A DNA stretch of 32,931 nucleotides from Gemmatimonadaceae bacterium (GCA_031426115.1 JANPKQ010000182.1:1-32931); one strand, 5' to 3'. Counted from the first letter of the stretch, positions 7,997 through 30,558 are shown. Notes: generated by a model from the letters alone, not told the origin. Translations and numbers: made by a program.

Positions 7997-8004
7997 GTGG
8001 GGGG

Positions 8005-8316
8005 ACTGACCGCGACTACGTACTGCACTTCACTGCTTACTGCGCACGCACTGCGTACTGGCTACTGCGAACGGGTGCAGGAGGGCGTACCGGGCGGCAG
8101 TGCGTAGTGGTGCGCAGTCCCAGTAGTCGCCCACGGACGGAGCGAACGGCGGTACCGGGCGCCCGCCTTCGGCTTGGCCGGTTGCCCGGATTCCTCCCAA
8201 CGACCCGCCGTTCCGCCTGCCGTGCCCGTCCCGCTCTGGCGGTGGGTACCGAGTACTACTTCGTACGAAGTGCGTGCGCAGTAAGCAGTGCCGGTCCGTA
8301 CGTAGTCGCGGTCAGT
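8005..8316. mobile_element. MITE-like non-autonomous element, copy 1 (312 bp; roughly 55-bp terminal inverted repeats ACTGACCGCGACTACGTAC...ACTGCTTACTGCGCACGCACT)
   Basis: The reverse complement of the right end (..agtgcgtgcgcagtaagcagtgccggtccgtacgtagtcgcggtcagt) matches the left end (actgaccgcgactacgtactgcacttcactgcttactgcgcacgcact) in 19-bp and 21-bp perfect blocks. The internal about 100 bp is about 95% identical to copy 3. Confidence 0.8.
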
Positions 8317-8425
8317 AAAACTCCGAAACCCGCTTCGACGCCCGGGGGTAAGATCTGGCTCGGATGAACGCCAGCCGCCTAGATTGCGGTCACGGCCATT
8401 GCCCGCTGCCCGTGGGAGGACCCGC

Positions 8426-9580
8426 ATGTCACGCCCGGTACTCACGCTTCTGGTCCTCATCGCCCTCCAGCCCGCATGCGTGCGGTCGGAGGCGGTCAGC
8501 GAGTGGCCGCTCATTGCCGAGTCGGGGACGCCGGCTGCCCAGGCGGACTCGAGCTTCGCGACGCTCGTCGCCCGGCTGTCCGAGCCGGGCGGGTATTTCG
8601 ACTCCGACAACCTCGTCTCGAACGAGTTGTCCTACGAGCACGTCCTCGGCGCGATGCGGCGGCTCAAGGTGTCCGGCGGGGCGTACATCGGGGTCGGGCC
8701 CGACCAGAACTACACCTACATCGGAAAGGTTCGGCCGAAGATCGTCTACATGATCGACCTGCGGCGTGACAACCTGCTCCAGCACCTGCTCTACAAGTCG
8801 CTCTTCGACATGGCGCGCAACCGCACCGAGTACCTCGCGCTACTCACCGCGCGGCCGGCGCCGAAGAACATTGCGAGCTGGGATCGCCGCGGCATCGATC
8901 AGGTCCTGGCATACATCGATTCGGTCACCCCGCAGCGTGGGCTCTTCGATTCGACGCGTGCCGCCGTCGCGCGAAAGGCGGGGAGCTACGGCATTCCGCT
9001 CGACGCACGCGACCTCGAGACGATCGCCCGCATCCACGGACGGTTCGCGGCCTCGGGCCTGGATCTCCAGTACGAGAGCCTGAACCGGCCATCGCGGCGC
9101 AACTATCCAACCTTCCGCGAGCTGATCCTCGAGCGCGACCTCGAAGGCATCCAGGGGAACTACTTCATCAGCGAAGACGACTTCCAGTTCGTGAAATCGC
9201 TGCACGCGAAGAACCTGATCGTGCCGGTGGTGGGCAACCTCGCAGGAGGTCACGCGCTCCGCGCGATCGGCCAGGACATCGCGGCGCGTGGCGAGCGGGT
9301 CTCCGTACTGTATGTCTCGAACGTCGAGTTCTACCTCATGCGCGAGGGTGGCTTCGATGCGTTCGCGGAAAACGCGAAGACGCTGCCGCGCAACGAGCGA
9401 AGCGTCATCATCCGCAGCTACTTCAACGGGCCGTACACGTACGGGCACCCGCAGTGGGTCCCCGGCTACTTCAGCACGCAGATCCTCCAGACGCTCGAGT
9501 CCCTCGTGACAGAGTACGCGAAGGGGGGCTACACCGAGTATCTCGACGTCGTCACCAAACACTCTCTCCCGCTTCGCTGA
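8426..9580 (+). CDS. Conserved hypothetical secreted protein (signal peptide; Rossmann-like GVGPDQN ... IVYMIDLRRD motif pair)
   Basis: ATG 8426 follows the SD GGGAGGA at 8414-8420. The signal peptide is MSRPVLTLLVLIALQPACVRSEA. No family was recognised with confidence. Strong GC3 bias supports that it is coding. Confidence 0.6.
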   Translation: MSRPVLTLLVLIALQPACVRSEAVSEWPLIAESGTPAAQADSSFATLVARLSEPGGYFDSDNLVSNELSYEHVLGAMRRLKVSGGAYIGVGPDQNYTYIGKVRPKIVYMIDLRRDNLLQHLLYKSLFDMARNRTEYLALLTARPAPKNIASWDRRGIDQVLAYIDSVTPQRGLFDSTRAAVARKAGSYGIPLDARDLETIARIHGRFAASGLDLQYESLNRPSRRNYPTFRELILERDLEGIQGNYFISEDDFQFVKSLHAKNLIVPVVGNLAGGHALRAIGQDIAARGERVSVLYVSNVEFYLMREGGFDAFAENAKTLPRNERSVIIRSYFNGPYTYGHPQWVPGYFSTQILQTLESLVTEYAKGGYTEYLDVVTKHSLPLR

Positions 9581-9587
9581 CTCCATC

Positions 9588-11531
9588 GTGAACCGACGCT
9601 CGTTCGTTCGCCACGCGACACTCGCCGCCGCGGGATTCGGGATCCTCCGCACGCTTCCCGCCTGCGCCGGCGAGCGGGGCAGCGACGCCGACCGCACCTT
9701 TACCGAGCTTCGCGACCGATACTTCCTTCGCCATCTCGAGCTCAACCCCGTCACCTCGACGTACCTCGGCGGCGACGGCTACAGCCCGACCTTGCGCGAC
9801 ATCAACGGCAAGCTGCGCGACTACCGGCCGGCGGCGATGGAATCCGAGCTGCGATTCTACCGCGACATCCGCGACGCAGTTCGCGGGATCGACGCATCCG
9901 CGCTGTCGTCGATCAACCGGATCGATCAGCAGGTGATCGCAGCGCAGGTCGAGTACCTCATCCGCTTCATCGATGTCCGTCACTATCACCAGCGCGCCAT
10001 CGATACCTACGTCGCCGAGCCGTTCCGCGGGATCGACTGGCAGATTCAGCAGATGCGCACGATCGAGGGCGGCCTGCTCGGTACGGAAGAGGAATGGGAG
10101 TTCGTCATCGCGCGGCTGATGGCGATCCCCGCCTACCTCGGCGTCGCTCGCGACAACATCCTCGCCGGGAAGCGCGCAGGGGTGACGGCCGATTGGCGCA
10201 TGATCGAGCGGGATGGGATCGCGGGGAGCAAGGCCAACGCCGAGTACTTCCGCACGACGCTCCCCGCCTCGGCGAGCACCTTTCTCGGGGAGCGCTCCTT
10301 CGCTCCGGCGCTCCGCGAGCGGGTCACCGCGGCGGGAGCCAGCGCCGCCGGCGAGTACGACCGGTTCGCAGAGATGCTCAATCAGTCGTTCGACATTTCA
10401 GCGAAGGTGGAAGGGTTCTCCGCCGCGGAGCAGGAGTACGAGTGGCGCGTGCGCAACGTGCTTCGCGATCCTCGCAGCGCCGAGATGCTCTACGCGCATG
10501 GAGCGGCGGAGGTCGAGAAGTACACGCAGCGGATCATCGAGATCGCAGGGGTCGTCGCGGCCGAGGCGAAGCTCGACCTGCCGTTCGGGAATCGGGACGC
10601 CGCGAACGCGAGCGTGCGAAAGGTCATGGAGCACCTCTCCAATGACTCGCCGAAGAGCGACGACGAGCTCTTCCAGTGGTATCGCGAGGCGGGAGCCCGC
10701 GCGGTGGCGTACGGGCGCGAGCAGGAGATGTTCGATATACCGAACGATTATCAGCTCGAGCTCGTCCCTACCCCGCCCGTCCTGCGGAGCACGATCGACG
10801 CGGCGTACTATCCTGCCCCGCCGCTCAAGCGCTCCGGTGCCGGCCGGTTCTACCTGACGCCAACCGGAAACGACCCGGCGGCGCTGCGCCAGAACAATCG
10901 CGCGTCGATCGCCGACACCGCGATCCACGAGGGGTTCCCGGGGCACGACTGGGAGTTCCGCTACATGACCGAGCACGCGGACCAGATCCCGAAGGTGCGG
11001 TGGCTGACGCCGGGAGCGGTCGAGGACTCGTCCTCGATGTGGGCCGATTCAATCGCCATGGAAGGCTGGGGCCTCTACGCCGAGGAGCTCATGGCGGAGC
11101 CGAGCGCCAACCGTCCATACGGCTTTTACACCGCGGGCGAGTACCTGTACGAGCTGCAGGGACAGCTGCTTCGCGCTGTTCGTGTCAGGGTGGATGTCGG
11201 GCTGCACACCGGGCGGATGTCGTACGATGAGGCGGTGAGCTACTTCACGGAGAACGTGTCCTTTTATCCGGGCGCCTGCGCGCGTGCAGCGCAGGATCCG
11301 ACTGCACGCGCCATCTGCGACTCGGCGAATCGCGCCATCTACCGCTACTCGAAGTGGCCCACCCAGGCGATCACCTACAACCTCGGCAAGAACGCGATCG
11401 TCGAGCTTCGCGAGGCGTATCGTGCGAAGAAGGGCTCGGCCTACTCCGCGAAGGAATTCCACGAGCGGCTGATGCGAATGGGCTCGATCCCGGTCGGCTT
11501 CTTCAGGGAAAGCTTCCTGGCGGAGGCCTAG
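9588..11531 (+). CDS. DUF885-family protein (predicted metallopeptidase-like, HExxPGH motif), Tat-exported
   Basis: GTG start followed by the twin-arginine motif [17 protein letters not shown]. Contains [11 protein letters not shown], characteristic of DUF885. 647 aa. Confidence 0.8.
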
Positions 11532-11536
11532 CGCGC

Positions 11537-12049
11537 GTGGCGACACCGGCCAATCCGGCCGCCGCGCTGCTTCGCACCTGGCAGCGGCTGCATCACCTTC
11601 CTGGCGGCCGCTGGCTCTTCAGCCGTCTCCTCGGATTCCAGGTTCCGTACACCGGCTCCATCAGGGCGACGGTATTGGAGATGCGGCCCGGCTACGCGCG
11701 GGTCGAGCTCCGCGATCGGCGATCGGTGCGCAACCACCTGCGATCGGTGCACGCAGTCGCGCTCGTCAACCTCGGTGAGGTCACGAGCGGCCTGGCGATG
11801 CTCAGCGCCACGCCACCAACGGTTCGCGGCATCGTCACGCGGCTCGAGACGGAGTACCTCAAGAAGGCGCGCGGAACGCTCATCGCTGCGTGTCAGTGCA
11901 CCGTGCCCGGGATCTCGGAGCCGACTGATCTCGAGATCCGCGCCGACATCAGCGATGCAGCGGGCGACATCGTTGCCCGTGTCACGGCGCGCTGGCGTTT
12001 GAGTCCGACGAGCGATGCGGGCGAGCGCAAGCCGGCGGCGCGTCAATGA
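11537..12049 (+). CDS. Hotdog-fold protein (DUF4442/PaaI-thioesterase-like)
   Basis: In-frame GTG at 11537, 5 nt after the DUF885 stop. [28 protein letters not shown] resembles the DUF4442 N-terminus. The alternative start is ATG near 11680. It ends in an ATGA overlap with the next gene. Confidence 0.5.
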
Positions 12050-13098
12050 CATTGCCGGCATCGCCGCGGACACCACTCACCGACCACGCCCGGATCGCGG
12101 TCCCGTTGATCTGCGGCGCGATGTATCCGTGCAGCAATCCGGAGCTCGTCGCCGCCGTCTCCGCTGCCGGGGGAATCGGCATCGTCCAGCCGATCTCGCT
12201 GACCTACGTCCATGGCCACGAGTTCCGCGCGGGCCTGCGACTCATCCGGAGCATCACGCCGAACCCGATCGGCATGAATGCACTCATCGAGGCTTCATCG
12301 CGGTCGTACCATGAGCGCATGACGCGGTGGGTGGACATCGCGCTCGAGGAGGGAGTGCGCTTCTTCGTGACATCGCTGGGCAACCCGAAGTGGGTCGCCG
12401 AGAGGGCTCATTCCGTCGGCGGCGTCGTCTACCACGACGTCACCGAGCGGAAGTGGGCGCTCAAGGGGCGCGACGGCGGCGTCGATGGACTCATCGGCGT
12501 CAACCGTCGCGCGGGAGGGCACGCCGGTCCGAAGGCGGCAGAGGTGCTACTCGAGGAGCTTGGCGACCTTGGACTCCCCGTTGTCTGCGCCGGGGGCATC
12601 GGCGACGCGGCGGATTTCGTTGCGGCCCTGCGGATGGGTTACGCGGGCGTGCAGATGGGCACGCGCTTCATCGCGACCCCCGAATGCAAGGCGTCTGACG
12701 CGTACAAGGCAGCGATCGTCAGCGCCGACGAGGACGACATCGTGCTCAGCGAGCGGATCACCGGCGTGCCGGTCGCGGTGATCCGGACGCCGTACATCGA
12801 GAAGATGGGCCTCGCCGCGGGGCCGGTCTCGCGCTGGCTCCTGCGGCACCGGCGCACGAAAAAATACATGCGCTCGATGTACGCGCTCCGATCGCTATGG
12901 CAGCTGAAGCGCGCCTCGCTGGACACGTCGGAGGCCGCGAAGGAATACTGGCAGGCTGGCAAGAGCGTCGCCGGCATCCATGCCATCGAGCCCGCGGGCG
13001 ACATCGTGACGCGATTCGCCGCCGCCCTCGCGACAACGGGTAGCGACCCGCGCTCCCGTGGGGTGAACGACGCGGTCGCGCCGGCGCCGCGGTCCTAG
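12046..13098 (+). CDS. Nitronate monooxygenase (NMO/2-nitropropane dioxygenase; FabK-like FMN TIM-barrel)
   Basis: Contains [28 protein letters not shown] and [14 protein letters not shown] motifs. Its start overlaps the previous stop (caATGa). Confidence 0.85.
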
Positions 13099-14051
13099 TA
13101 CAGCGCCGGGCCAACCCCGATCGGGCGGTTGATCTTCAACAGGTTGGCGAGCGTAGCTGCGGCTCCGGTGATTGCCGGCGTCCCGGGCAGGCGTCCTGGC
13201 GTCACGGTCGCACCGACGAGGAGCCACGGAATCCGCCGGTCGTCCCCATGCGCGGTGCAGTGCTCGTGAGTCGGCGCGATGCCGGCAACACAGCCGTCTC
13301 CGTGGCCGCCGCCGTGGTCCGCTGTGATCGCGAGTGCCACTTCGCCAGCGGCGATCGCGGGATCGAGCGCCGTGATGAGTCGCGCGAGATGGGCATCCAC
13401 GTCGGCAACCGCCGTGAGATAGGGCGAGGTCAGCGACCCGCCGCCATCGACCCAGCCGGCAGCGTGTCCCGCGGCATCGACGGCGCTGATGTGCACGAAC
13501 AGGATCGTCGGCGCCGAGGCATCCGTGGCGACGCTGATCGCCCCGTCGATGATGCCGGCTGTGGCTTCGGGGGCGGAGATGAGGACGTTGAGCCCGAAGA
13601 ACGACCTGGCCATCTCGATCTGCGAGGGCGGCACCAGCGCACCCCCGATGATGGCGGTGCTCGTGCCGCCCGATGATCGAACCCATTGGAAGATCGACGT
13701 CGCGCCATTCACCAGGAGTGCAATGGCTGCTGTCTCGTCGAGCGCGTTGGTCGTCAGCCCGAGGGTCGTGACATCGCGCCCGGAGAACAGCGAGAGGTGG
13801 CCGGGCACGGTGAGCGACGGCACTACGGTCTGCATGCTGTCGCTCCACTGAGCGCGAGCGCGGAGCGCGGAGAGAGCCGGCATCCGGGCGAGCGCGTCGG
13901 CGCGGAGGCCATCCACCGTCACGAGCACGACGCGGCGCACGGGCGGCTCCCCCGGTTCTGCCGGCGCGATGCCGCACGAGGTCAGAAGCGTGGCCAGGGC
14001 CAGGACACCGATCGGGGGGCGCCGGAGGCGCCGACTGCGGGAGGGAGACAT
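13095..14051 (-). CDS. Alkaline-phosphatase-superfamily type I phosphodiesterase/nucleotide pyrophosphatase, lipoprotein
   Basis: Contains the VVLVTVDGLRADAL metal-binding motif and the lipobox LATLLTSCG. ATG at 14049-14051. Its stop overlaps the NMO stop convergently (cTAG). Confidence 0.8.
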   Translation of the reverse strand: MSPSRSRRLRRPPIGVLALATLLTSCGIAPAEPGEPPVRRVVLVTVDGLRADALARMPALSALRARAQWSDSMQTVVPSLTVPGHLSLFSGRDVTTLGLTTNALDETAAIALLVNGATSIFQWVRSSGGTSTAIIGGALVPPSQIEMARSFFGLNVLISAPEATAGIIDGAISVATDASAPTILFVHISAVDAAGHAAGWVDGGGSLTSPYLTAVADVDAHLARLITALDPAIAAGEVALAITADHGGGHGDGCVAGIAPTHEHCTAHGDDRRIPWLLVGATVTPGRLPGTPAITGAAATLANLLKINRPIGVGPALY

Positions 14052-14346
14052 CGTGGATCAGACGAGACAGAAACCCGCCCCGTCACGCGAGAATCCGGGA
14101 CGATCCCAGCGCGGTGAAGGCTTGTGAGACGTCCCCGCGGAACGCACGTTCTCCCGAACGGGGCGGGCCCCGTCAGGACCGCTTTCCGGTCAGCGCGGGT
14201 GACGCATGTCACGATGCAGTCGGGGGTTGGCGCGCGGCTGAAGTGCGCGACCAGGAAGCGTCCCACTTGGCGCGCGCGCGCGGCGCGGGCGTTGCATGAG
14301 TGGCCGGGAGACACACACCCAGAAATGGCGAGGAGAGCGGTTCATC

Positions 14347-14625
14347 ATGTCGTATCGAACTTTTCTGGATGCAGATGGCGAGGAGTGGCAGGCCTGGGAC
14401 GTGTTTCCCAGCACCGATGTCCGGCGCACGCTCGTCGGGGGCTGGCTTACCTTCCAGTCGCAACGGGAGAAGCGGCGCCTCGCGCCCGTTCCGCTCTACT
14501 GGATGAGCGCCGACGAGGAAGAGCTCCGACGCCTGCTGCGATCCGCCAAGCCGGCGGTCGAGCGCACGGGCGCGCGTGCGGAAATGCCGAACGACACCCC
14601 GTTGGAGATTCCGCCCGCTCCCTGA
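14347..14625 (+). CDS. Small hypothetical protein (92 aa)
   Basis: ATG 14347 (MSYRTFLDADGEEWQAWDV...) is preceded by the SD GGAGAG about 9 nt upstream. GC3 is moderately high. No family recognised. Confidence 0.35.
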   Translation: MSYRTFLDADGEEWQAWDVFPSTDVRRTLVGGWLTFQSQREKRRLAPVPLYWMSADEEELRRLLRSAKPAVERTGARAEMPNDTPLEIPPAP

Positions 14626-14802
14626 CGGTCAACGGGGCAATTTCCTCGACTCGGGACGAGGGGGCGCCGAGCGCTCGAGACGTGCGCTCCGAGGCGGCAG
14701 CATCGACGTTCACAACTCCTGCAACTGCGAACACGGTCAGCGGCCCGAGAGCCGCGCGGTGCAGTGCGAAGTCGGAAGGGAGCGCGTGGCTCGCTCTGGA
14801 CC

Positions 14803-14836
14803 GTCGAGACTCGCGGCGGCGTCAGCGAGTCTCGAC
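14803..14836 (-). terminator. Hairpin gtcgagactcgc-N10-gcgagtctcgac (12-bp perfect stem) 9 nt downstream of the rpsU stop
   Basis: Read directly. No U-tract, as is common in high-GC genomes. Confidence 0.4.
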
Positions 14837-14844
14837 GAGCGGAA

Positions 14845-15033
14845 CTACGGGCGCGCGGCGGTGCGCTTGCGGCGACGAGCGGCGGCGGCCTTGAGCTGGC
14901 GAGCTTCGCTCGGCTTCACATAATGCCGCCGGCGCCGAAGATCCTTGAGGATCCCGGCCTTGAGCAGCTTCTTCTTGAAAACCTTGAGCGCCCAGTCGAG
15001 CCGATCGTTCTCGTCGAGCTTCACTTCGATCAT
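14845..15033 (-). CDS. rpsU: 30S ribosomal protein S21
   Basis: MIEVKLDENDRLDWALKVFKKKLLKAGILKDLRRRRHYVKPSEARQLK has the S21 signature and is followed by a basic tail. 62 aa. Confidence 0.9.
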   Translation of the reverse strand: MIEVKLDENDRLDWALKVFKKKLLKAGILKDLRRRRHYVKPSEARQLKAAAARRRKRTAARP

Positions 15034-15157
15034 TGTGATACCGGAGAAGGAGTTGCCGTGATTCCGCGGGTGCTGCGAGAGAAGCGAACAGCCGGATCGA
15101 TGTGACTCGACCCGGCTGTCGTGCCGTGGCAGAAGTTATCTGCCGCGGCCGGCTACG

Positions 15158-15370
15158 TCAGCCGCCCAGCTTCGTGACGTTCTCGGCGGCAGGACCCTTC
15201 TGGCCCTGCACGATGTCGAACTCGACGCGCTCGCCTTCGGCGAGGGTCTTGAAGCCACTGCCCTGGATGGCAGAGTGGTGAACGAAGCAGTCCTTCTGGC
15301 CGTTCTCGGGCGTGATGAAACCAAAGCCCTTCGCGTCATTGAACCACTTCACTTTGCCGGTCGTACGCAT
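15158..15370 (-). CDS. Cold-shock protein, CspA family
   Basis: [31 protein letters not shown] contains the RNP1/RNP2 motifs. 70 aa. SD AGGGG upstream. Confidence 0.95.
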
Positions 15371-15763: not shown

Positions 15764-15896
15764 GAGAACTGACAACTGTGAACTGACAACCGTTCACTTT
15801 CGTTTTTCGACTTCCGATCCACCCCGGATGGTTTGGCGGATGGATCATGAGCGGGAAACGAAGTGAACGGTGGTCAGTTAACAGTTTTCAGTTCTC
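15764..15896. terminator. Large imperfect inverted repeat (39-nt arms 15764-15802 and 15859-15896, 35/39 matching) immediately 3' of the GlsB-family gene
   Basis: The left arm is gagaactgacaactgtgaactgacaaccgttcactttcg. The reverse complement of the right arm is gagaactgaaaactgttaactgaccaccgttcacttcg. The arms flank a 56-nt spacer. The region has lower GC. Confidence 0.6.
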
Positions 15897-15910
15897 GGTT
15901 CCCGGAGCCG

Positions 15911-20517: not shown

Positions 20518-20538
20518 CGTCGTTCGGATGTTGTAGAG

Positions 20539-20572
20539 CGCGGGGCAGATCACTCTGCCCCGCGTTTTTTTT
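20539..20572 (+). terminator. Rho-independent terminator (10-bp stem cgcggggcag/ctgccccgcg, loop atcact, then T8)
   Basis: Read directly. It starts 21 nt after the OmpA-family stop, and the T-run abuts MITE copy 2. Confidence 0.8.
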
Positions 20573-20835
20573 ACTGACCGCGACTACGCACGCATGGGCA
20601 CTGCTTACTGCGCACGTACTTCGTACGGAGTACCTGGCACACACCGCCGGAGCGGACCTGCAACGGCAGGCGGAAGGACCAGGCGGAAATCGGGAACGGC
20701 GGACTGAGGTGCCAACCCGGTACTGTCAGCGATGAACTCCATCGCCGGGCGAAGGGCGGTTCCAAACCGTACGAAGTAGCCCGTTCGCAGTACGTGCGCA
20801 GTAAGCAGTGCTGATCCGTACGTAGTGCGGTCAGT
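20573..20835. mobile_element. MITE-like element, copy 2 (263 bp; same termini as copies 1 and 3, different internal sequence)
   Basis: It starts tactgaccgcgactacgcacgc and ends gtacgtgcgcagtaagcagtgctgatccgtacgtagtgcggtcagta. A TA is present at both boundaries (ttTA|CTGAC ... GTCAG|TAaa). Confidence 0.75.
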
Positions 20836-20910
20836 AAAGCTGGCATGGGCTCTGCCACCGTTAGCGGCACGATAAATCCACGCCTGCTCCCGCCCGCACC
20901 GAGCCCAGCC

Positions 20911-22446
20911 ATGCACAGCGATTCCGGCGACACCGTCTCCCTCTGGATGGCGACGGCCGACATGCCATCGTATCCGCCGCTCACCGAGAACGCGACCGCC
21001 GATGTCTGCATCGTGGGCGCGGGGATCGCCGGGATGACGACGGCGTACATGCTGACACAGGCGGGACGCAGCGTCGTCGTCCTCGATGATGGACCGGTGG
21101 GCGGCGGCGAGACGGGCCGGACGACCGCGCACATCGCCAACGCGATGGACGACCGCTTCCACCGCCTCGAGCAGCTGCACGGCGAAGAGGGATCGCGCAT
21201 CGCGGCGGCGAGCCACGGCGCGGCAATCGACCGCATCGAGGCAATCGTACGCGCCGAGGGGATCGACTGCGCCTTCGAGCGCGTCGATGGCTATCTCTTT
21301 CTTGGCGGGGACGACAAGGAGGAAGAGCTCGCGCGGGAGCTCGAGGCAACGCATCGCGCCGGCCTCACCGACGTCGAGCCCCTCGATCGCATCCCGAAGC
21401 TGCCATTCGACTCCGGACCCTGCCTGCGCTTTCCGCGGCAGGCACAGTTTCATCCCCTCGCGTATCTCGCCGCGCTCGCGCGCATCGTGACGCGGAACGG
21501 CGGGAAGATTCACACGGGCTCACACGTGGCCGGGTTCGAAGCGAAGCCGCGCCGCCCGCAGGTGAAGACGAGCGACAAGAAGACGGTGACCGCCGACGCC
21601 GTGGTGTTCGCGACCAACAGCCCGATCAATGATTGGGTGAAGATGCACACCAAGCAGGCGCCGTATCGCTCCTTCGTCATCGGCGCCCGCATTCCGCGCG
21701 GTTCGGTGCCGAAGGGGTTGTACTGGGACACGCCCGACCCGTACCACTACATCCGTATCCAGGCCGACGTCGGTGGCTCCGATGTACTGCTCGTCGGCGG
21801 CGAGGACCACAAGACGGGCCAGAAGGACGATGCTCCCGAGCGGTTTGCGCGCCTCGAGGCGTGGACCCGCCAGCGGTTCCCAATGGTGCAGAGCGTCGAC
21901 TATCGCTGGTCGGGCCAGGTGATGGAACCGGTGGACCACATGGGATTCATCGGGCGCAATCCCGGGAGTGATGGAAAGAACGTCTATATCGCCACCGGCG
22001 ATTCGGGACAGGGGATGACCCACGGCACCATCGCCGGCATCCTCATCACCGACCTCATCGTCGGCCGGGAGAACGCGTGGGAGTCCCTCTACGACCCCTC
22101 ACGCATCTCGCTCAAGTCGGGGATGGAGTTCGCGAAGGAGAACCTCAACGTCGCGGCGCAGTTTCGCGATTACGTCACGCCGGGCGACGTCGCATCGCCG
22201 GATGAGATCCCGCCCGGAACGGGCGCGGTCATCCGCCGTGGCCGGCACAAGGTTGCTGTCTACCGCGATGACTCGGGCACGGTGCACGAACGCTCCGCCG
22301 TCTGCACGCATCTCTACTGCATCGTGGACTGGAACTCGACGGAGAAGACCTGGGATTGCCCCTGTCACGGCTCGCGCTTCGACCCGCTCGGCAAGGTCGT
22401 GAACGGACCCGCGATCGCTCCGCTCGCAGAGATCGAGGAGGAATAG
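20911..22446 (+). CDS. FAD-dependent oxidoreductase (DAO-like) fused to a C-terminal Rieske [2Fe-2S] domain
   Basis: N-terminal DVCIVGAGIAGMTTAY dinucleotide motif. C-terminal CTHLYC...CPCHGSRF Rieske ligands. Start placed at ATG 20911 (MHSDSG). The ORF opens at 20845, immediately after the MITE. Confidence 0.8.
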   Translation: MHSDSGDTVSLWMATADMPSYPPLTENATADVCIVGAGIAGMTTAYMLTQAGRSVVVLDDGPVGGGETGRTTAHIANAMDDRFHRLEQLHGEEGSRIAAASHGAAIDRIEAIVRAEGIDCAFERVDGYLFLGGDDKEEELARELEATHRAGLTDVEPLDRIPKLPFDSGPCLRFPRQAQFHPLAYLAALARIVTRNGGKIHTGSHVAGFEAKPRRPQVKTSDKKTVTADAVVFATNSPINDWVKMHTKQAPYRSFVIGARIPRGSVPKGLYWDTPDPYHYIRIQADVGGSDVLLVGGEDHKTGQKDDAPERFARLEAWTRQRFPMVQSVDYRWSGQVMEPVDHMGFIGRNPGSDGKNVYIATGDSGQGMTHGTIAGILITDLIVGRENAWESLYDPSRISLKSGMEFAKENLNVAAQFRDYVTPGDVASPDEIPPGTGAVIRRGRHKVAVYRDDSGTVHERSAVCTHLYCIVDWNSTEKTWDCPCHGSRFDPLGKVVNGPAIAPLAEIEEE

Positions 22447-23293: not shown

Positions 23294-25041
23294 GCGAGGC
23301 CCGCGCGGTGTTCGGCGTCTTCGCGTACCTCACGACGACGTCGATGAGGAACCGCTTTCGCGCGAAGGTGAAGCAGCTGAAGAACCCGCGATACTCGGTC
23401 GCGCTGCTCTTCGGGGTCGCGTACATCTGGTTCTTCCTCTTTCGTCCGCCGGGCGCGGGATCCGCGCGGCCCAACCTGTTCGGAAGTGCCAACATCCAGC
23501 TCATCGCATCGCTCGGGGTGTTCATCCTCTTCATGCGCTGGTGGCTCTTCGGCAACGACCGCTCGGCGCTCGCCTTCAGCCCCGCGGAGATCCAGTTTCT
23601 CTTCCCCGCACCCATCACGCGCCGGGCGCTGATCCAGTTCAAGCTGCTGCGGAGCCAGATTGCGATCGTCTTCAACGCGATTCTCTGGGTGCTCATCTTC
23701 GGCCGCGGTGGTGCGGAGTTGCCAGCCGTGCTCCGGGTGATGTCGGTCTGGGCGATGCTGAGCATCTTCACCCTGCATCGCCTCGGCGCGACGATCGTAC
23801 GCGCGTCGACGACGCAGCACGGGAAGGCGGGAGCCCGGCGCAACGTCGTGGCGCTCATCGTCTTCGGCGCGGTCGCCGCGGGCCTCATCTGGACGGCGAT
23901 CACCGGCTACTCGAGCGTGCGCAATGCGTCCGGCATCAGGCAGGTGACCGAGGCGATCACGACGCTGCTGCGCCAGCCCGTGCCGCACGCGCTGCTCGCG
24001 CCCTTCCGGGTGCTGCTGGCTCCGACCTTTGCCAACACCATCGCCGACTGGGCGCCGAAGTTCGCCATTGTCGTCGTCGGCCTGGCGCTCCACTACGTCT
24101 GGGTGCTGCGCACCGAGCTGGCGTTCGAGGACGCGGCGGTCGAAGCATCGGCGGCCCGGGCCAAGCGCATCGAGGCGATGAAGGCGCGCCGCTCGGGCAA
24201 CGCGGCGCCGGTGCGCGCCGGCAACCGCACCTGGATCCCCCTCGCGCCCAGCGGACATCCGGCGATGGCGATCCTGTGGAAGAACATCCTCGCGCTATCG
24301 CGAACCTCCGGGTCATCGATGGTGGGTGTGATGGTCATCATCTCGACCTTCGTCATCATGGCGGTCTTCATCTCCTCCCAGGGACGAACCGGCTTCGCGT
24401 CGCTCCTCGGCTACTTCGCCCTGGCGATGATGGGATTCAGCGTCCTCGTCGGCGCCCGCTTCGTCCGGATCGACCTGCGACAGGACCTCGTCCACCTTCG
24501 ACTGCTGCGCACCTATCCCATCGACGGGTCCGCGCTCGTCGCCGCCGAAATCGCCGGCTCGACGATCGTGCTGACGGCAATCCAGATGGGCCTCCTGCTC
24601 TTCGCCCACGTCGCGCTCCTCTCCGCGCCCGAGGTGCCGCTGGATCCATGGTCGCGTTGGCTGATTGTCGCAGCGGCACCACTGGCCCTGCTCGTGTTCA
24701 ACGCCGCCACGGTCACGATCCAGAACGGCGCCGCCCTGCTCTTCCCCGCGTGGGTGAAGCTCGGCACGGCGAAGAGCGGCGGTATCGAGGTGCTCGGCCA
24801 GAGCCTCCTGACGATGGCCGCGTCGCTCGCGGCGCTCGCGCTCGCGCTGGTCCCGCCAGCGATCGCCGGGGGCGCGACATTCCTCGCGGTGACGACGGTG
24901 TTCGACGGAACCGCCATTGCCGGCGCCGCGGCGGGATGCGCGATCGGTGTTCTGGCGCTCGGAATCGAGGTCGCCATGGCGATGATGATGCTCGGCGAGG
25001 TGTTCGAGCGAGGAGAGATGGTCGGGGTCCCCGCGCCCTAG
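23290..25041 (+). CDS. Polytopic membrane protein, putative ABC-exporter permease partner
   Basis: Its GTG overlaps the ABC stop (GTGA). About 580 aa with at least 10 hydrophobic helices and no ATPase motifs. The architecture resembles the 'putative ABC exporter' family. Confidence 0.55.
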   Translation: MSEARAVFGVFAYLTTTSMRNRFRAKVKQLKNPRYSVALLFGVAYIWFFLFRPPGAGSARPNLFGSANIQLIASLGVFILFMRWWLFGNDRSALAFSPAEIQFLFPAPITRRALIQFKLLRSQIAIVFNAILWVLIFGRGGAELPAVLRVMSVWAMLSIFTLHRLGATIVRASTTQHGKAGARRNVVALIVFGAVAAGLIWTAITGYSSVRNASGIRQVTEAITTLLRQPVPHALLAPFRVLLAPTFANTIADWAPKFAIVVVGLALHYVWVLRTELAFEDAAVEASAARAKRIEAMKARRSGNAAPVRAGNRTWIPLAPSGHPAMAILWKNILALSRTSGSSMVGVMVIISTFVIMAVFISSQGRTGFASLLGYFALAMMGFSVLVGARFVRIDLRQDLVHLRLLRTYPIDGSALVAAEIAGSTIVLTAIQMGLLLFAHVALLSAPEVPLDPWSRWLIVAAAPLALLVFNAATVTIQNGAALLFPAWVKLGTAKSGGIEVLGQSLLTMAASLAALALALVPPAIAGGATFLAVTTVFDGTAIAGAAAGCAIGVLALGIEVAMAMMMLGEVFERGEMVGVPAP

Positions 25042-25093
25042 GGCGCGCCCGCGCGCTGCCGGGCTCGCGGAGTTGGGGATCGGAGGACATCCT

Positions 25094-25489
25094 ATGACCA
25101 TGGCCAAGACTCCTTCAGCGCCGGCGCATCCGAACATCGGACCGCGCGGCTGCCAACGTCGCAAGGGAATGTCCTGGGTGTGGCTTGCGCTCGCCGTCGT
25201 GCTCATCGGCGTCCTTGCCTGGCGTGACGCACCACCTCTCTGGTATTCGCTCACCGCGATCCCGTTCCTGTTCGCATCGCTCGGCGTCTTCCAGGCGCGC
25301 GAGCAGACGTGCGTGTTCCTCGCCGGTGTCGGGAGCCGGGACCTGGACGCAGGGGCCGAGCGCGTGACCGATCCGCAGGTGCTTTCCGTCATGCGCCAGC
25401 GGGCGATGGTCGTGTGGCTGCGCGCGACGCTCGCCACGATCGGGCTCGCCGGTTTCACGGTGCTCATCGCGCTCGCGCGCCAGGGATGA
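25094..25489 (+). CDS. Small hypothetical membrane protein (2-3 TM helices)
   Basis: High GC3. It lies between the permease and the kinase, and its stop overlaps the kinase start (ATGA). The start is uncertain (25073, 25094 or 25171). Confidence 0.4.
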   Translation: MTMAKTPSAPAHPNIGPRGCQRRKGMSWVWLALAVVLIGVLAWRDAPPLWYSLTAIPFLFASLGVFQAREQTCVFLAGVGSRDLDAGAERVTDPQVLSVMRQRAMVVWLRATLATIGLAGFTVLIALARQG

Positions 25490-26862
25490 CGACGCTGCCT
25501 CACATCGCGCCCGATCGGCTGTCGCTCGATACCGGGGAGCATTGGAGTGGCCTCGCGATGGGCGCGGACGACGCAGGGAGCGCAGGGGAGCATGACCCTG
25601 CTCGCCAGCTGCTCGCGCTCCAGCGGGAGCGCGCGGAGCGGCAGCTCAACGCCGTGCGAGGCACCGTCCTGCTGCTGCTCGCGGCGGCGGCGCTCGTCTA
25701 CGCACCGAGCCTGACACCCGGGCTCAACCGGGCGAACGTGCTCGTTCTCGTTCCTTCGCTATCCTGGACGATCGCGCAGTACGCGCTGTTCTACCGGCGC
25801 GCCCGCCTGCCGGGGTGGCTCGCGATCGTGAACCCGCTCGTCGATGTCGCGGGCGTCACTGCGATCATGGCCGCGTACGCGCTCCAGCAATCCGCGGCGC
25901 TCGCGCTCGGTTCGCCGATCTTCCTCGCCTACTTCGCGATTCTCGCTGCTCGCCCAATCGCATCATCCACCTTCAAGGCCGCCGCCGTCGCCGCCCTGAC
26001 CGTGCTCGCCTATGCAGCGCTGCTCTGGTTCCTCATCACGAGCGGACGCGTGGAGGTCGTGGCGAATCCGGTGAGCGCGATGACCGGAGGCGCGATCTCA
26101 TCGCTCGACGAGGGGGCGAAGCTCCTGCTGCTCGCGGTCGCGGGCGCGATCGCGACGTACGCGACGGCGTGGCACGAACGCGTCGCGACGAGCTACTACC
26201 GCGAGAGCGGGACGAGGGCTCGGCTCGAGACGCGTCTGGCGCGCGCGCAGCTCCAGAGCCTCAAGCTGCAGATGCATCCGCATTTTCTCTTCAACACCCT
26301 CAACAGCATCACGACGCTCATCACCGAGGACCCGCTGGCGGCCGAGCGAATGGTGACCGGGCTGAGCGAGCTGTTGCGCATCTCGCTGCGAACCGCGAGC
26401 GAGCAGGAGGTGCCTCTCGAGCGAGAGCTGGAGGTGCTGCGCCACTATCTCACGATCCAGGAGATCCGGTTTCACGACCGGTTGTCGGTGGCACTCGACG
26501 TCGATCCTGACACGCTCCACGCGATGGTGCCGAATCTGATCCTGCAGCCTCTCGTGGAGAATGCGATTCGGCACGGCATCGGCCCGCGCGCGACCGGCGG
26601 CTCGATCGAGGTGCGTGTCACGCGGGTTGGCGACAAGCTACGCATGCGCGTGCACGACGATGGCGTCGGAACCCCCGCCGACGCGATGCCGGTTCGCGAA
26701 GGGACGGGCATCGGCAACACTCGCGCGCGACTGGGCCATCTCTACGGCACGCGCCACCGCTTCGAGATCGGTGGCGCGCCGGGCGCGGGGTTCACGGTGA
26801 TGGCGGAGATCCCGTACCGGGTGGCGTCCGAGGTAGACGGGGACGCTTCCCAACCGGCCTAG
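25486..26862 (+). CDS. LytS/YehU-type sensor histidine kinase (polytopic N-terminal region, His_kinase HPHFLFNTLN box, HATPase_c)
   Basis: Contains LQMHPHFLFNTLNSITTLI and LILQPLVENAIRHG, plus a G-box. No response regulator gene is adjacent. Confidence 0.85.
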   Translation: MTTLPHIAPDRLSLDTGEHWSGLAMGADDAGSAGEHDPARQLLALQRERAERQLNAVRGTVLLLLAAAALVYAPSLTPGLNRANVLVLVPSLSWTIAQYALFYRRARLPGWLAIVNPLVDVAGVTAIMAAYALQQSAALALGSPIFLAYFAILAARPIASSTFKAAAVAALTVLAYAALLWFLITSGRVEVVANPVSAMTGGAISSLDEGAKLLLLAVAGAIATYATAWHERVATSYYRESGTRARLETRLARAQLQSLKLQMHPHFLFNTLNSITTLITEDPLAAERMVTGLSELLRISLRTASEQEVPLERELEVLRHYLTIQEIRFHDRLSVALDVDPDTLHAMVPNLILQPLVENAIRHGIGPRATGGSIEVRVTRVGDKLRMRVHDDGVGTPADAMPVREGTGIGNTRARLGHLYGTRHRFEIGGAPGAGFTVMAEIPYRVASEVDGDASQPA

Positions 26863-26877
26863 CGGTGGATCGAGGGA

Positions 26878-28662
26878 CTACTTCCGCGCTCGCTCCGGTC
26901 GCGTCTCGTCCGCATCGGTTCGGGGCGTCAACGCCGTGACGGCGGGTGCCGCGACGCCATCGCCCGATACGACGCCGCTTCCCCGCACTTCGACATCGGC
27001 GCCGTTGCCCTCAGGGTTCAGCTTGCCGAAGTAGCCCGGCAGCTCCACACCGGCGATATCGCGAAGCACGCTCATCATCGGAGGAAGGGTGTTGGCCATG
27101 TTCTGGAGGAACCCCGACGTTCCGCCTCCCTGCCCGCCCCCGTCCCAGACAACGATCTTGTCGAACTTGATGTTCGAGATGGCCTTCGCCGACGTCTCGG
27201 CGAGCGTGTCGAGGTGCTCGATCATCATGAGCTGGAAGGCCTCCTTCGCGCCGCCGCACGCCTGCACAACTTCGCGCAGCGCATCGGCCTTCTTCGCGAG
27301 GATCTCGTACTCGCCACGCGCCTGCGCCTCCAGCTTCATGTAGATCGCGGCCGCATCGGCCTCGGCGGCAATGCGAACGCTCTGCGCCGCGGCCTCGGCC
27401 TGAACGATCGTGCGCGCCTTCTCGGCCTTCGCCGGCGCCTCGACCTCGGCACGTCGCTCCGCTTCGACGCGCTCGGCATCGGCGATTGCCGCGCGAGCCA
27501 TCGCGCGGTTCTGCGCTTCCTGGACGTATGCCTCGGCCTCGCGCTTCTTCGTCTCCGACAGTTGATAGGCTTCGGCCTCGCGAACCTGGAGCTGCGCGCG
27601 GGTTGCCGCGATCAGTCCCTGAGACTCCGCCTCACCTTCGATGGCCTTCGCCTCGGCGCTCGCGACGAGAATGCGCTTCTTCTGCTCGGCGTCCTTGATC
27701 TGCGACTCGCGCTCGAACGCGGCGCGCTGCTCACCGATGCGCTGCTCCTTGTCGAGCTCCGCGACGCGGACCGCCTGGGTGCGCTGACCTTCCTTGATCT
27801 GCGCGTCGCGCTCGAAGACCGCCATCTGCTCGCCGACCTTCTGCTCCTTGTCGAGCTCCGCCACGCGCACGGCCTTTTCCCGGTCGGCCTCGCGCATGCC
27901 GATCTCGCGGAACTTCATCGCGTTCGCGACCTGCACGATACGCTCGCGGTCCGCCTCGGCCACACGCACCTCGCCGAGCTTCTCCTGCTCGGCCACATCG
28001 CCGCGCGCCTGCTGCACGGCGGTGGACGCCGCCTTCTTCCCGATCGCCTCGATGTAGCCGGAGTCGTCGCGGAGGTCGGTGATGTTCACGTTGATGAGGA
28101 CGAGCCCGATCTTCTTGAGCTCCGGCTCGAGCGACTGCTGCACGCGGTGAAGGAACGCATCGCGATCCTTGTTGATCTCCTCGATGCGCATCGACGCGAT
28201 GACCTGACGTAGCTGGCCGAAGATGATGTCCTGTGCCTGCCGCTTGATCTGGTCGTGGGTGAGGCTCAGCAGGCGGATCGCCGCGTTTTGCCTGACTTCT
28301 GCCTCCGTGCCGATGGCGACGGTAAACACGCTCGGAACGGCAACGCGGATGTTCTCGAAGGAGAGCGCGTCCTTGAGCGGAATGTCGATCTGGATCGGCT
28401 CGAGGCCGAGATAGGCGTATTCCTGGATTACCGGCCAGACGAAGGCACCGCCGCCGGAGATGCACTTCGCGCTCTCGCCGCCGCCGACCCGTCCGGAGAT
28501 CACCAGCACCTTGTTCGACGGACAGCGCTTGTAGCGTGCGACGAACAGGAAGAGCAGGCTGAGGAAGATGACGACAGCGAGCGCGGGGCCCGCGATTGCC
28601 CACATCGGAATCCCGACGACGGAATCGGGAGTGATCTGGAACAGGAAGAGATCAAACGACAT
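26878..28662 (-). CDS. Flotillin-family (SPFH/band-7) protein with a long EA-rich coiled-coil region
   Basis: Start MSFDLFLFQITPDS, N-terminal TM helix, SPFH domain, then a repetitive region with AEAK/EAE repeats (YqiK/FloT-like). The ORF extends to 28698. Confidence 0.88.
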   Translation of the reverse strand: MSFDLFLFQITPDSVVGIPMWAIAGPALAVVIFLSLLFLFVARYKRCPSNKVLVISGRVGGGESAKCISGGGAFVWPVIQEYAYLGLEPIQIDIPLKDALSFENIRVAVPSVFTVAIGTEAEVRQNAAIRLLSLTHDQIKRQAQDIIFGQLRQVIASMRIEEINKDRDAFLHRVQQSLEPELKKIGLVLINVNITDLRDDSGYIEAIGKKAASTAVQQARGDVAEQEKLGEVRVAEADRERIVQVANAMKFREIGMREADREKAVRVAELDKEQKVGEQMAVFERDAQIKEGQRTQAVRVAELDKEQRIGEQRAAFERESQIKDAEQKKRILVASAEAKAIEGEAESQGLIAATRAQLQVREAEAYQLSETKKREAEAYVQEAQNRAMARAAIADAERVEAERRAEVEAPAKAEKARTIVQAEAAAQSVRIAAEADAAAIYMKLEAQARGEYEILAKKADALREVVQACGGAKEAFQLMMIEHLDTLAETSAKAISNIKFDKIVVWDGGGQGGGTSGFLQNMANTLPPMMSVLRDIAGVELPGYFGKLNPEGNGADVEVRGSGVVSGDGVAAPAVTALTPRTDADETRPERARK

Positions 28663-29224
28663 TGGACAGCTCCTTCGTGATTGGGTCGGGAACCACATCG
28701 ACCGTATCGGGCCCGACGACGTCCACGACCAGAATTGGTGCGCCCGTCGGCAGTGCGGCCTGGGATGTCACGGCCTGGTATTCGACGGTGCGGTTCTGGA
28801 GGGTGAGGATCACTTTCCCGGCTCCCTTCCGGTCGCCGGGGATCGCGAGGTACACGGTGCCGGTCGCTCCGACGGCCCCATCGATCAGCACCGAGCCATC
28901 GTCCTCGAGCCGCAGCATCCAGCGTGTCACCAGGGCCGTGCCGATCGTCGCGCCGAGTCCGAGCACGATCCCGAGCGGGAGCGCTGCCAGGAGTCCGAGC
29001 CCGGTCGCCAGCCCCGCCATGCCGCCGACACCGAAGAAGCCCAGGCCCGCCGAGATGGCGCGGACGCTGAGAAGGTTCAATCCTTCGGCTGCACCGTGAC
29101 CCACGTGGCCGTCGTGGTGGTGGACATCGACATCGTGATGGGCGATGCCGAGCACGCCGAGGATCAGCTGCACCACAAGGATGGCGCCGCCGAGGATTGC
29201 GCAGGTAACGAAGAAGGTCTGCAT
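28652..29224 (-). CDS. NfeD-like/YqiJ-family membrane protein (flotillin partner)
   Basis: MQTFFVTCAILGGAILVVQLILGVLG, then the His-rich segment HHDVDVHHHDGHVGHG, then a C-terminal OB-fold-like region. It overlaps the flotillin start by 11 nt. Confidence 0.65.
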   Translation of the reverse strand: MQTFFVTCAILGGAILVVQLILGVLGIAHHDVDVHHHDGHVGHGAAEGLNLLSVRAISAGLGFFGVGGMAGLATGLGLLAALPLGIVLGLGATIGTALVTRWMLRLEDDGSVLIDGAVGATGTVYLAIPGDRKGAGKVILTLQNRTVEYQAVTSQAALPTGAPILVVDVVGPDTVDVVPDPITKELSNVV

Positions 29225-29365
29225 GGCAAACAGAAGATGCGAACGGCGCAGGGGGGCCGCTAGGAGCGTCCGTGTCTCTTCGTTGCCTCGTTCGCGCAGG
29301 GGACCGGAGGCTTCACGGCTGCCAACTCTCGATGCCTGTGCCAGTTGCACCCACCTGATGCGACG

Positions 29366-29398
29366 CAGGGCGAACGACGGTCACTGTCGTTCGCCCTG
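29366..29398 (-). terminator. Hairpin cagggcgaacgac-N7-gtcgttcgccctg (13-bp perfect stem) 20 nt downstream of the VOC gene stop
   Basis: Read directly. It separates the VOC gene from the NfeD/flotillin pair. Confidence 0.5.
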
Positions 29399-29418
29399 TC
29401 CAACCACACAGGGTGCTG

Positions 29419-29880
29419 TCAGCCGTTGATCGCGCTCGGGTCCATCCAGAACACTTCCCAGTGGTGGCCGTCGAGGTCATAGAAGCTTCGCACGAACATG
29501 AAGCCCTGATCCTGCGGATCTGCGGCTTCCGATGCGCCGGCGGCGAGTGCCTTCGCCAGCATCGCGTGGACTTCCTCGCGGCTGTCCACGGAGATCGCGA
29601 AGATCGCGTTCGTCTCGGTACGCGCGTCGCCCACCGGACGCTTGCTGAAGCCGCCGAAGCGCTCCCGGTCGAGGAGCATGAAGTAGGCGTCCTCGCCGAC
29701 GAGCATGCAGGTCGCGCTCGCGTCGGTGAACTGCTGGTTGAACACGAAGTCGAGCGCCTCGAAGAAGCGGATCGAGCGCTGAAGGTCGCTCACCGGGATG
29801 TTGACGAACAGCTTGCGCGGCGTCGTCGGGCGAGTGCCGGCGTTGGTGATGGTCGGGGCGGTTGTCTCGGTCGTGGACAT
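29419..29880 (-). CDS. VOC-family (glyoxalase/bleomycin-resistance-like) protein
   Basis: Contains KLFVNIPVSDLQRSIRFFEALDF...GHHWEVFWMDP. 153 aa. Confidence 0.75.
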   Translation of the reverse strand: MSTTETTAPTITNAGTRPTTPRKLFVNIPVSDLQRSIRFFEALDFVFNQQFTDASATCMLVGEDAYFMLLDRERFGGFSKRPVGDARTETNAIFAISVDSREEVHAMLAKALAAGASEAADPQDQGFMFVRSFYDLDGHHWEVFWMDPSAING

Positions 29881-29910
29881 TGGAGGATTCCGGTTATGTG
29901 GTGAACGGGA

Positions 29911-30243
29911 TCAGCGAGCGGAGCGAAGCAGCGCGCGAACGCGGGCGTCGCGCAGGTAGAGGCCGCCCCAGATGAACGCGGCGACGTAGATCGGGAAGAG
30001 GATGTGTGAGAAGAGCGGATTGTCGATGCGCAGGTGCGTCGCGATCGCGCCGCCGAGGTAGCCGGTCCAGAGGATCGCGCCGAGCGGCGCGGTGCGCGGG
30101 ATGAGGTAGAGCGCGAGGCAGACCAACTGGATCGCGCCGAGGATGGGCAGGTGGTGCGGGGACCAGCCGAGCTGGGTCGTGCCGTCTATTGCTTCCTTCG
30201 CGCCGCTGAATTTCATCGCCAGGTCGAAGATGAGGAAGAGCAC
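29911..30243 (-). CDS. DoxX-like family membrane protein, apparently 5'-truncated at the MITE copy 3 boundary
   Basis: KFSGAKEAIDGTTQLGWSPHHLPILGAIQLVCLALYLIP...YLGGAIATHL matches the DoxX-like loop through TM2-TM4. The first TM helix is missing. The ORF opens with GTG at 30243, and an in-frame TAA lies 6 nt upstream inside the MITE terminus. Confidence 0.55.
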   Translation of the reverse strand: MLFLIFDLAMKFSGAKEAIDGTTQLGWSPHHLPILGAIQLVCLALYLIPRTAPLGAILWTGYLGGAIATHLRIDNPLFSHILFPIYVAAFIWGGLYLRDARVRALLRSAR

Positions 30244-30251
30244 GGCGTTTT

Positions 30252-30558
30252 ACTGACCGCGGCTACGTACTGAACTTCACTGCTTACTGCGCACGCACTG
30301 CGTACGGGCTACTGCGCACGGGTGCATGAGGGCGTCACGGGCGGCAGTGCGTGGTTGTTCGCAGTCCCAGTAGCTTCCCGCCGAAAAGCGCAACAGCACA
30401 CCGGGCGCCCGCTCCTTCTCGGCCGGTTGCCCGGATTCCTCCCAACGCCCCGCCGTTCCGCCTGCCGTGCCCGTCCCGCTCTGGCGGTGGGTACTCGGTA
30501 CCCGGTACGAAGTGCGTGCGCAGTACGCAATGCCGGTCCGTTCGTAGTCGCGGTCAGT
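30252..30558. mobile_element. MITE-like element, copy 3 (307 bp; about 95% identical to copy 1 internally)
   Basis: tactgaccgcggctacgtactgaacttcactgcttactgcgcacgcactgcgtac ... gtacgaagtgcgtgcgcagtacgcaatgccggtccgttcgtagtcgcggtcagt. Confidence 0.8.

Follow-up and report, generated by a model that had tools for sequence, protein, structure and literature searches.

A 32,931-nucleotide (nt) stretch of DNA from a Gemmatimonadaceae bacterium (GCA_031426115.1 JANPKQ010000182.1:1-32931; the whole stretch is hereafter called the window) contains three short palindromic elements, which raise the question of what they are and how they came to lie at three separate places. An earlier note on this DNA had described them as a family resembling MITEs (miniature inverted-repeat transposable elements), each at the 5′ boundary of a gene. 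We compared the elements with one another, with syntenic contigs of uncultured relatives (retrieved through homologues of the SahR-like, flotillin and FAD/Rieske proteins) and with genome, metagenome, viral and plasmid sequences. In the reading that we consider probable, the three elements belong to a single family of palindromic repeats that is restricted to its lineage, neither encodes a protein nor moves autonomously, and is mobilised in trans by an enzyme of its host, an uncultured soil Gemmatimonadota bacterium.

Three copies of one element

Copy 1 (8005–8316, minus strand, 312 nt) is flanked on one side by the divergent SahR-like gene (ATG at 7945, minus strand) and on the other by a DUF7790 gene (ATG at 8427). 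Copy 2 (20573–20835, plus strand, 263 nt) lies between the terminator of an OmpA-family gene and a TGGCA-N7-TGCCA box upstream of a FAD/Rieske gene (ATG at 20911), and copy 3 (30252–30558, minus strand, 307 nt) between a DoxX_2 open reading frame (ORF) and an ECF sigma-factor ORF. Orientation was assigned by the strand that carries a purine-rich core. The relationship between the three, as first noted, is real and far beyond chance: the 18-mer CACTGCTTACTGCGCACG has six matches with at most two mismatches, one in each arm of each copy, where shuffled sequences lead one to expect 0.04, and the terminal ACTGACCGCGACTACG has five matches against 0.49 expected, with a 1-nt deletion at the sixth end. 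All six ends were also linked by a repeat finder. The description of one family of small, non-coding, inverted-repeat elements is thereby upheld, and the general label 'MITE-like' holds in a broad sense.

Within the family, the degree and nature of the likeness differ from what had been reported. The identity of copies 1 and 3 is 87.6% over the whole element and 84.3% in its interior, not 95%; their divergence is concentrated at 8125–8175 and 8250–8262, and near-identity is confined to one 74-nt stretch (8176–8249). Copy 2, to which a different core had been ascribed, is the same element inverted: its reverse complement is 69% identical to copies 1 and 3 (60–63% in direct orientation), a part of 113 nt shows 80% complementarity to copy 3, and it has the core motif ACGGCAGGCGGAA in common with the other two. 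Because the same difference between left and right arms recurs in all three copies, the element has a polarity and was copied whole. The copies are collinear and alike in arm asymmetry, so whole units were copied; this copying, to unlinked sites, took place after the split from the nearest sampled relatives.

Heptamer-built arms and a conserved core

The arm of copy 1 at 8005–8058 pairs with 8263–8316 (54 nt, 89% complementary) and reads ACTACGT ACTGCAC .. ACTGCTT ACTGCGC .. ACTGCGT. In copy 2 the arm, in the extent given by the repeat finder, spans 20583–20640 with its partner at 20769–20826 (58 nt, 81% complementary), and the terminal ACTGACCGCG at 20573–20582 pairs with 20827–20835, which carries the 1-nt deletion. 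The arm of copy 3 (30245–30319) pairs with 30491–30565 (75 nt, 77% complementary). Over their first 60 nt, the copies are 82–84% complementary to the opposite end. Where terminal inverted repeats of roughly 55 bp had been noted, the arms are 54–75 nt long and 77–89% complementary; they are built of degenerate tandem heptamers and are not simple inverted repeats.

The heptamers include ACTGCGC, ACTTCGT, ACTGCTT and ACTACGT (consensus ACTKCKY), contain no G-runs and are interrupted by 4-nt inserts; by eye, the arm strings run ACTACGT ACTGCAC .. ACTGCTT ACTGCGC ACGC ACTGCGT ACTGGCT ACTGCGA. Pooled over 12 arms, identity at lag 7 is 0.42 versus 0.26 in shuffles (z = 12.7), with further autocorrelation peaks at lag 14 and at lags 4, 11 and 18, and the 7-nt periodicity is absent from the core of the element and from coding controls. 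The number of heptamer modules differs among relatives, symmetrically between the two arms, and 11 stem pairs have changed on both sides with pairing kept. Each copy folds into a single long hairpin, with z scores against shuffles of −7.4 (copy 1), −10.4 (copy 2) and −5.9 (copy 3).

Between the arms lies a unique, asymmetric core of about 100–190 nt, the best-conserved part of which is ACGGCAGGCGGAA on the purine-rich strand; this motif is also kept in the relatives L007, L016 and L031. The conserved core of copy 1 (8176–8249, minus strand) reads ..CACCGCCAGAGCGGGACGGGCACGGCAGGCGGAACGGCGGG.. and has one mismatch in 74 nt to copy 3 (30421–30494). In copy 2 the core motif is at 20642–20677 on the plus strand (CACCGCCGGAGCGG..ACGGCAGGCGGAAGG).

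The sites are empty in relatives

The homologues listed for the proteins of the window come mostly from Gemmatimonadaceae, Longimicrobiaceae and other Gemmatimonadota metagenome-assembled genomes (MAGs). At the orthologous sites, the copy 1 position is empty in L048, where the spacer is 140 nt; the copy 2 position is empty in L037 and L047 (in the latter, the terminator is 10 nt from the TGGCA box); and the copy 3 position is empty in L035 and L038, in which DoxX is intact (144 and 152 codons) and, in L038, separated from the sigma gene by a spacer of 65 nt. No relative among the syntenic contigs compared has an element at the copy 3 site. At the copy 1 site, L031 has a diverged member of the superfamily, with the same orientation and core and with different arm heptamers and ends. 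The same contig carries, between its AdoHcyase and MacB genes (12500–12900), a one-armed element of the family (arm and core, in opposite orientation) together with degenerate modules right after the stop codon; in the window, about 23 nt and no element separate these genes.

Given that each site is empty in at least one syntenic relative, and that the AdoHcyase–MacB element is found in L031 and not in the window, we conclude that the elements are insertions with turnover and not conserved leaders. A conserved cis-regulatory leader, the structured alternative against which the earlier note had set insertion, would be expected at orthologous loci; the elements are absent from those of L035, L037, L038, L047 and L048, and the copy 1 site of L031 alone holds a related element. 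The syntenic 40 kb of Ga0502575_0000016 contain two copies, against three in the 32,931 bp of the window.

Other hairpins occupy some of the same spots. At the copy 1 site, L034 has an unrelated hairpin (8976–9195) with weak 7-nt periodicity (z = 2.0), and at the copy 2 site three different unrelated hairpins are found in L038 (9795–9935), L039 (5366–5520) and L046 (1–48). Three of these four site-occupying hairpins have a clear 7-nt periodicity (z = 3.9–4.9). Different hairpins at the same spots would mean either strong targeting or fast turnover in place.

In a rival explanation, the elements are not transposons at all: heptamer-array palindromes would turn over in place through slippage and arm-to-arm conversion, and copies would resemble one another through ectopic gene conversion between arrays that already existed. 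That nine of ten unrelated hairpins between genes, in the window and in relatives, have a periodicity at lag 7, frequently anchored by ACTG or TGAC, is what this explanation would lead one to expect, as are the two intergenic spots that hold different hairpin families in different relatives, the L031 element that keeps core and orientation while its arm heptamers and ends differ, and the symmetric variation in module number. Xanthomonas, moreover, has 70–75 convergent pairs of heptamer arrays, generally without association with insertion sequences (ISs) or other mobile elements (PMC4692102). Other observations speak against it. Relatives have no array where copy 3 sits, and the arrival of this copy went together with a deletion within a gene. 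Copies 1 and 3, the sites of which are unlinked and the flanks unrelated, run collinear for about 310 nt, the non-repetitive core included; and gene conversion requires flanking homology, which is absent here. We regard an origin by turnover in place as unlikely.

Copy 3 truncated a DoxX gene

Copy 3 takes the place of about 200 nt; in relatives, this stretch holds the first 34–40 codons of DoxX, the region for ribosome binding and the spacer that leads to the ECF sigma gene. What remains is a 5′-truncated DoxX_2 ORF (29911–30243, minus strand) of 110 codons from a GTG, the Pfam match of which starts at profile position 8. An in-frame TAA at 30250–30252, formed at the junction with the element, directly precedes this GTG. 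In a protein alignment the DoxX of the window lacks the first 34 residues of its orthologues of 144 and 152 amino acids, so that copy 3 does not, as had been thought, abut the first codon of an intact gene.

On the other side of copy 3, the ECF sigma/SnoaL-type gene (about 30608–30930, minus strand) is a remnant: by comparison with the L038 orthologue, residues 8–25 run in frame straight into residues 240–319, and about 214 residues are gone. With DoxX truncated and the sigma-factor gene reduced to a remnant, both genes that flank copy 3 are damaged. Annotations of this contig should accordingly treat the 110-codon DoxX ORF and the adjoining sigma-factor ORF as remnants. The family also offers a clean natural example of a small palindromic repeat truncating a gene.

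Copies 1 and 2 lie beside a promoter and a terminator

The sigma-70-like promoter of the SahR-like gene (7968–7996, minus strand) has its −35 box, TTGACC, at 7991–7996, 8 nt from copy 1, and its GTCAAG is conserved in L031, L034 and L048. The closeness of copy 1 to this −35 box, as first noted, is confirmed. Copy 1 is 110 nt upstream of the DUF7790 gene. The −10 region upstream of the SahR-like gene is overlapped by an AT-rich palindrome, ATATCCGTATATCCGGATATAAGGATATA (7947–7975), which is conserved in the same three contigs and is presumably the SahR operator.

Copy 2 is abutted by the T-run of the intrinsic terminator of the OmpA-family gene (20535–20572, plus strand), a hairpin that recurs in L038 and L047; its reported place between a T-run terminator and the FAD/Rieske gene is thus confirmed, and the terminator ends directly at the element. 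From the other end of copy 2 it is 5 nt to the conserved TGGCA-N7-TGCCA box and 75 nt to the FAD/Rieske start codon. The sequence TGGCATGGGCTCTGCCA (20841–20857) beside the element is conserved in L037, L038, L039, L046 and L047; it fits a sigma-54 −24/−12 promoter (GG and GC 10 nt apart) and also a TGGCA-N7-TGCCA operator of the FAD/Rieske–ABC exporter operon.

As a rule, then, a position at gene 5′ boundaries is not supported: copy 2 comes just behind a terminator, a gene lost its 5′ end to copy 3, and the copies of relatives directly follow stop codons. The landing sites were short stretches free of constraint, one beside a promoter, one beside a terminator and one within a gene.

Flanks, ends and target site

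Copy 2 reads TA/CTGACC...GGTCAG/TA, and copies 1 and 3 have TA on one side only, just as the flanks had been described. The TA pair of copy 2 need not be a duplication, because it is also part of a symmetric TTTAC...GTAAA that is common to four of the six ends. Comparing filled with empty sites at all three loci, we saw no target-site duplication, nor was one visible in L007, L016 or L028, although divergence could hide one of 2 nt. In L007 and L016 the ACTGACCGCG...CGCGGTCAGT unit is flanked by further complementary modules and by CG. The ACTGACCGCG end is therefore internal to longer arms in these relatives, and fixed termini are not supported.

These data bear on the type of mobile element that had been suggested, a classic DDE-type MITE of the Tc1/IS630 kind, for which a full-length IS with the same ends would supply the transposase and TA would be duplicated at the target. 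Such an element would account for long inverted ends with a well-conserved terminal 16–20 nt, for the TA on both sides of copy 2 and, if the other TA of copy 3 went with the adjacent 200-nt deletion, for some of the one-sided TA at copies 1 and 3; four of the six ends also lie in T- or A-runs, as expected of an AT-seeking element in a genome of 66% GC. Set against this, a two-sided TA is present in one of the three copies only, where it belongs to the symmetric sequence as well; the same unit has CG flanks in L007, L016 and L028; in L047, the closest of the empty copy 2 sites, the junction lacks TA; and none of the real matches was found to have a transposase nearby, IS630-like or other. A TA target of the Tc1/IS630 type is not supported by these data, and we hold this explanation to be unlikely.

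Coding capacity, RNA and transcription

None of the ORFs that overlap the elements has a Pfam match, and copies 1 and 3 differ by frame-breaking indels of 1 nt and 2 nt in the core, in agreement with the earlier statement that the elements have no credible coding capacity. Transposase domains were found neither among the 30 other ORFs of the window scanned with Pfam nor in the gene tables of the syntenic loci. At gathering scores, Rfam 15 has no match in the whole window; with E values up to 1, the copy 1 region (7950–8400) matches only a plant microRNA model, by chance, at 19 bits (gathering score 75). A sigma-70-like promoter was not found inside any of the three copies. A role as intrinsic terminator was considered and dropped, the hairpin of the element being followed by A's and not U's on either strand. 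Readings as attC sites, retron RNA or IS200/IS605 ends were given up as well.

Selection could nevertheless have kept the elements as functional units recruited near genes, be it as a small RNA, as a stabiliser of transcript ends or insulator, or as a platform to which a host protein binds. Different lineages have kept the core motif ACGGCAGGCGGAA, the 74-nt core stretch has a single mismatch between copies 1 and 3 against an overall divergence of 12%, and most heptamer arrays of Xanthomonas are transcribed (PMC4692102). The low-mismatch stretch, however, has a nominal P of 6e-4 that becomes about 0.16 after correction for position, which is not significant. Relatives can dispense with the element at each of the three sites; with divergent promoters on either side of copy 1 and a strong terminator ahead of copy 2, neither copy is obviously transcribed; promoter and Rfam searches gave no credible candidate; and copy 3 damaged a gene. 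A selected function strikes us as quite improbable.

Distribution of the family

An exact-match scan of 185,579 species-representative genomes with the 18-mer returned five stretches, two of them real and both from one Gemmatimonadaceae MAG, in which the 18-mer stands in tandemly duplicated modules right after a stop codon. With the terminal 19-mer, a metagenome scan returned 25 stretches, of which three are real soil contigs (L007, L016 and L028) and 22 are chance matches. Copy 2 aligns over its full length, at about 70% identity, to L007 (1464–1712) and L016 (1046–1284). Two scans of viral contigs gave chance matches only, blastn against plasmids gave none, and an nhmmer profile of arm and core revealed no further copies in about 350 kb of compared loci. 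The exact-motif scans of genomes, metagenomes and viruses yielded only non-coding relatives, and none that has the same ends and encodes an enzyme.

A model for the spread of the elements

Returning to a family of non-autonomous repeats, we propose that an enzyme from another part of the genome would copy the elements in trans, and that it probably recognises the terminal module (TTTT)ACTGACCGCGACTACG, the hairpin, or both. As the sites show no visible target-site duplication, we would favour a duplication-free route, either single-stranded and hairpin-based (HUH/Y1-type) or through break repair, over classic DDE cut-and-paste. The arms may then lengthen, shorten and change by heptamer slippage, with both arms staying complementary. 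The elements would most likely be selfish and their local effects incidental; among such effects we count the truncation of DoxX and the sequence inserted upstream of one promoter, at a distance of 8 nt, and of a conserved box, at a distance of 5 nt.

Several points weigh against this model. The scans made found no mobilising enzyme, autonomous copy or duplication, so that a transposase acting in trans is a step that we infer, and the source genome contributes three copies, all in one contig of 32,931 bp. Protein identity to the relatives is 73–92% and the DNA between their genes aligns poorly, so a 2-nt duplication could have gone unseen. A supposed terminus that lies inside a longer palindrome, as in L007 and L016, suits a fixed unit of transposition less well, and the unrelated hairpins at the copy 1 and copy 2 sites could reflect turnover in place and not repeated insertion. 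The core, finally, is conserved better than the arms between lineages, which hints at some function.

A broader idea is that the elements are one family among the products of a general, undescribed Gemmatimonadota process that builds and spreads intergenic palindromes with heptamer arms. We consider this a long shot. If one enzyme or repair route does generate, target and homogenise such arrays, it may also account for the paired arrays of Xanthomonas and the heptamer repeats of cyanobacteria, and would represent a new class of repeat-generating mechanism, beyond another MITE family. What is most unusual about the elements, namely arms built of heptamers and intergenic spots that different heptamer hairpins have used repeatedly, could conceivably point to a common generating mechanism, albeit with little probability.

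Other repeats in the window

The window holds further repeats. A separate MITE-like element at 2493–2750, flanked by a peptidase M2 gene and a MacB-like gene, has inverted ends of 38 nt with a complementarity of 95% (CTCATCGGATGATGCGGATCGAGCGGATGAAAGGGCG) and shows no 7-nt periodicity; its ends recur at 86–97% identity in two contigs from other organisms (L034, 1860–2080; L028, 2623–2678). A composite repeat at 150–516 consists of two direct copies spaced 113 nt and 97% identical, with an inverted partner at 465–516 and about 11 tandem heptamers of the GCTTTCA type at 352–431 (identity of 0.63, 0.73 and 0.69 at lags 7, 14 and 21). A short fragment related to it (GAAGGCTGAAGGCTGGCAGCTGAC) abuts copy 3 at 30560–30585. 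A hairpin family at 15764–15896 and 5355–5425 is made of ACTGACA/ACTGTGA heptamers in 36-nt arms that are 92% complementary; a fragment of this family lies just after the AdoHcyase stop codon, and the hairpin at the copy 2 site of L038 has a similar design and an unrelated sequence. Within the flotillin/SPFH gene, a 99-nt tandem duplication (27661–27858, 72% identical) is presumably a repeated coiled-coil segment.

Comparison with known systems

Small palindromic repeats shape promoters, terminators and the integrity of genes, and Gemmatimonadota are a common, poorly studied soil phylum for which our literature search found no relevant reports of MITE or REP elements. The repeat family is previously undescribed, but is of the familiar small-selfish-DNA sort and not a new kind of system; it shows insertion hot spots that adjoin a terminator and a promoter.

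Among small non-coding bacterial MITEs, the Correia/NEMIS elements found in Neisseria and the RUP elements found in Streptococcus pneumoniae have fixed ends and TA duplication, and lack a transposase of their own. The elements studied here resemble these bacterial MITEs in size, hairpin form, location and polymorphism: they are 0.1–0.3 kb, non-coding, lack their own transposase, have hairpin-forming inverted ends, are dispersed between genes near promoters and terminators, and vary in presence among relatives. They differ in that no duplication is seen, that their ends are internal to longer arms in relatives, and that their arms are degenerate heptamer arrays of 55–75 nt or more in place of a unique 20–30-nt inverted repeat; host phylum and sequence differ as well, with no similarity in the latter. 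BOX elements of S. pneumoniae consist of 45–59-nt modules in variable number, the end modules of which pair into a stable stem-loop. The likeness to BOX lies in modularity, in the variable count of internal modules and in pairing end modules; the heptamer arrays set our elements apart from BOX modules of 45–59 nt, to which they have no sequence relationship.

REP sequences, 20–40 nt long with an unpaired GTAG or CGTC tag, and REPINs of about 70–110 nt (PMC3733652) belong with BIMEs to a group that is moved by RAYT tyrosine transposases, and families with long terminal inverted repeats lie beside RAYT-like 'TIRYT' genes (Bertels & Rainey 2011, PMC3116915; Di Nocera et al. 2013, PMC3733652). Like these, the Gemmatimonadaceae elements are hairpin-forming extragenic repeats, with no target duplication seen, that persist for long at orthologous sites and change in place; several such families can coexist in a genome, and TIRYT shows that HUH enzymes can be tied to families with long inverted repeats. 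Membership in REP/REPIN was considered and set aside, given lengths of 263–312 nt, arms of 55–75 nt, paired ACTGACCGCG ends and a CGTAG that occurs only inside the stem. No RAYT gene was found in the window or the compared loci.

The closest published parallel to the arms is the paired heptamer arrays of Xanthomonas, in which GGGAATC arrays form 70–75 convergent pairs able to fold into stem-loops (Rehm et al. 2015, PMC4692102). That report, which also cites Correia elements and the tandem heptanucleotide repeats of the cyanobacterium Calothrix PCC 7601, found the arrays generally unassociated with ISs or other mobile elements and left their convergent pairing unexplained (PMC4692102). Common to both are intergenic tandem heptamers in two convergent arrays, variation in length and sequence among close relatives and the lack of an associated IS. 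Unlike the near-perfect, G-rich, quadruplex-forming unit of Xanthomonas, the heptamers described here are degenerate, have 4-nt inserts among them and enclose a unique core that is conserved, and here whole elements are copied to new sites. Through its heptamer-built arms, the family is linked to the unexplained arrays of Xanthomonas and cyanobacteria, and may help to find their maker.

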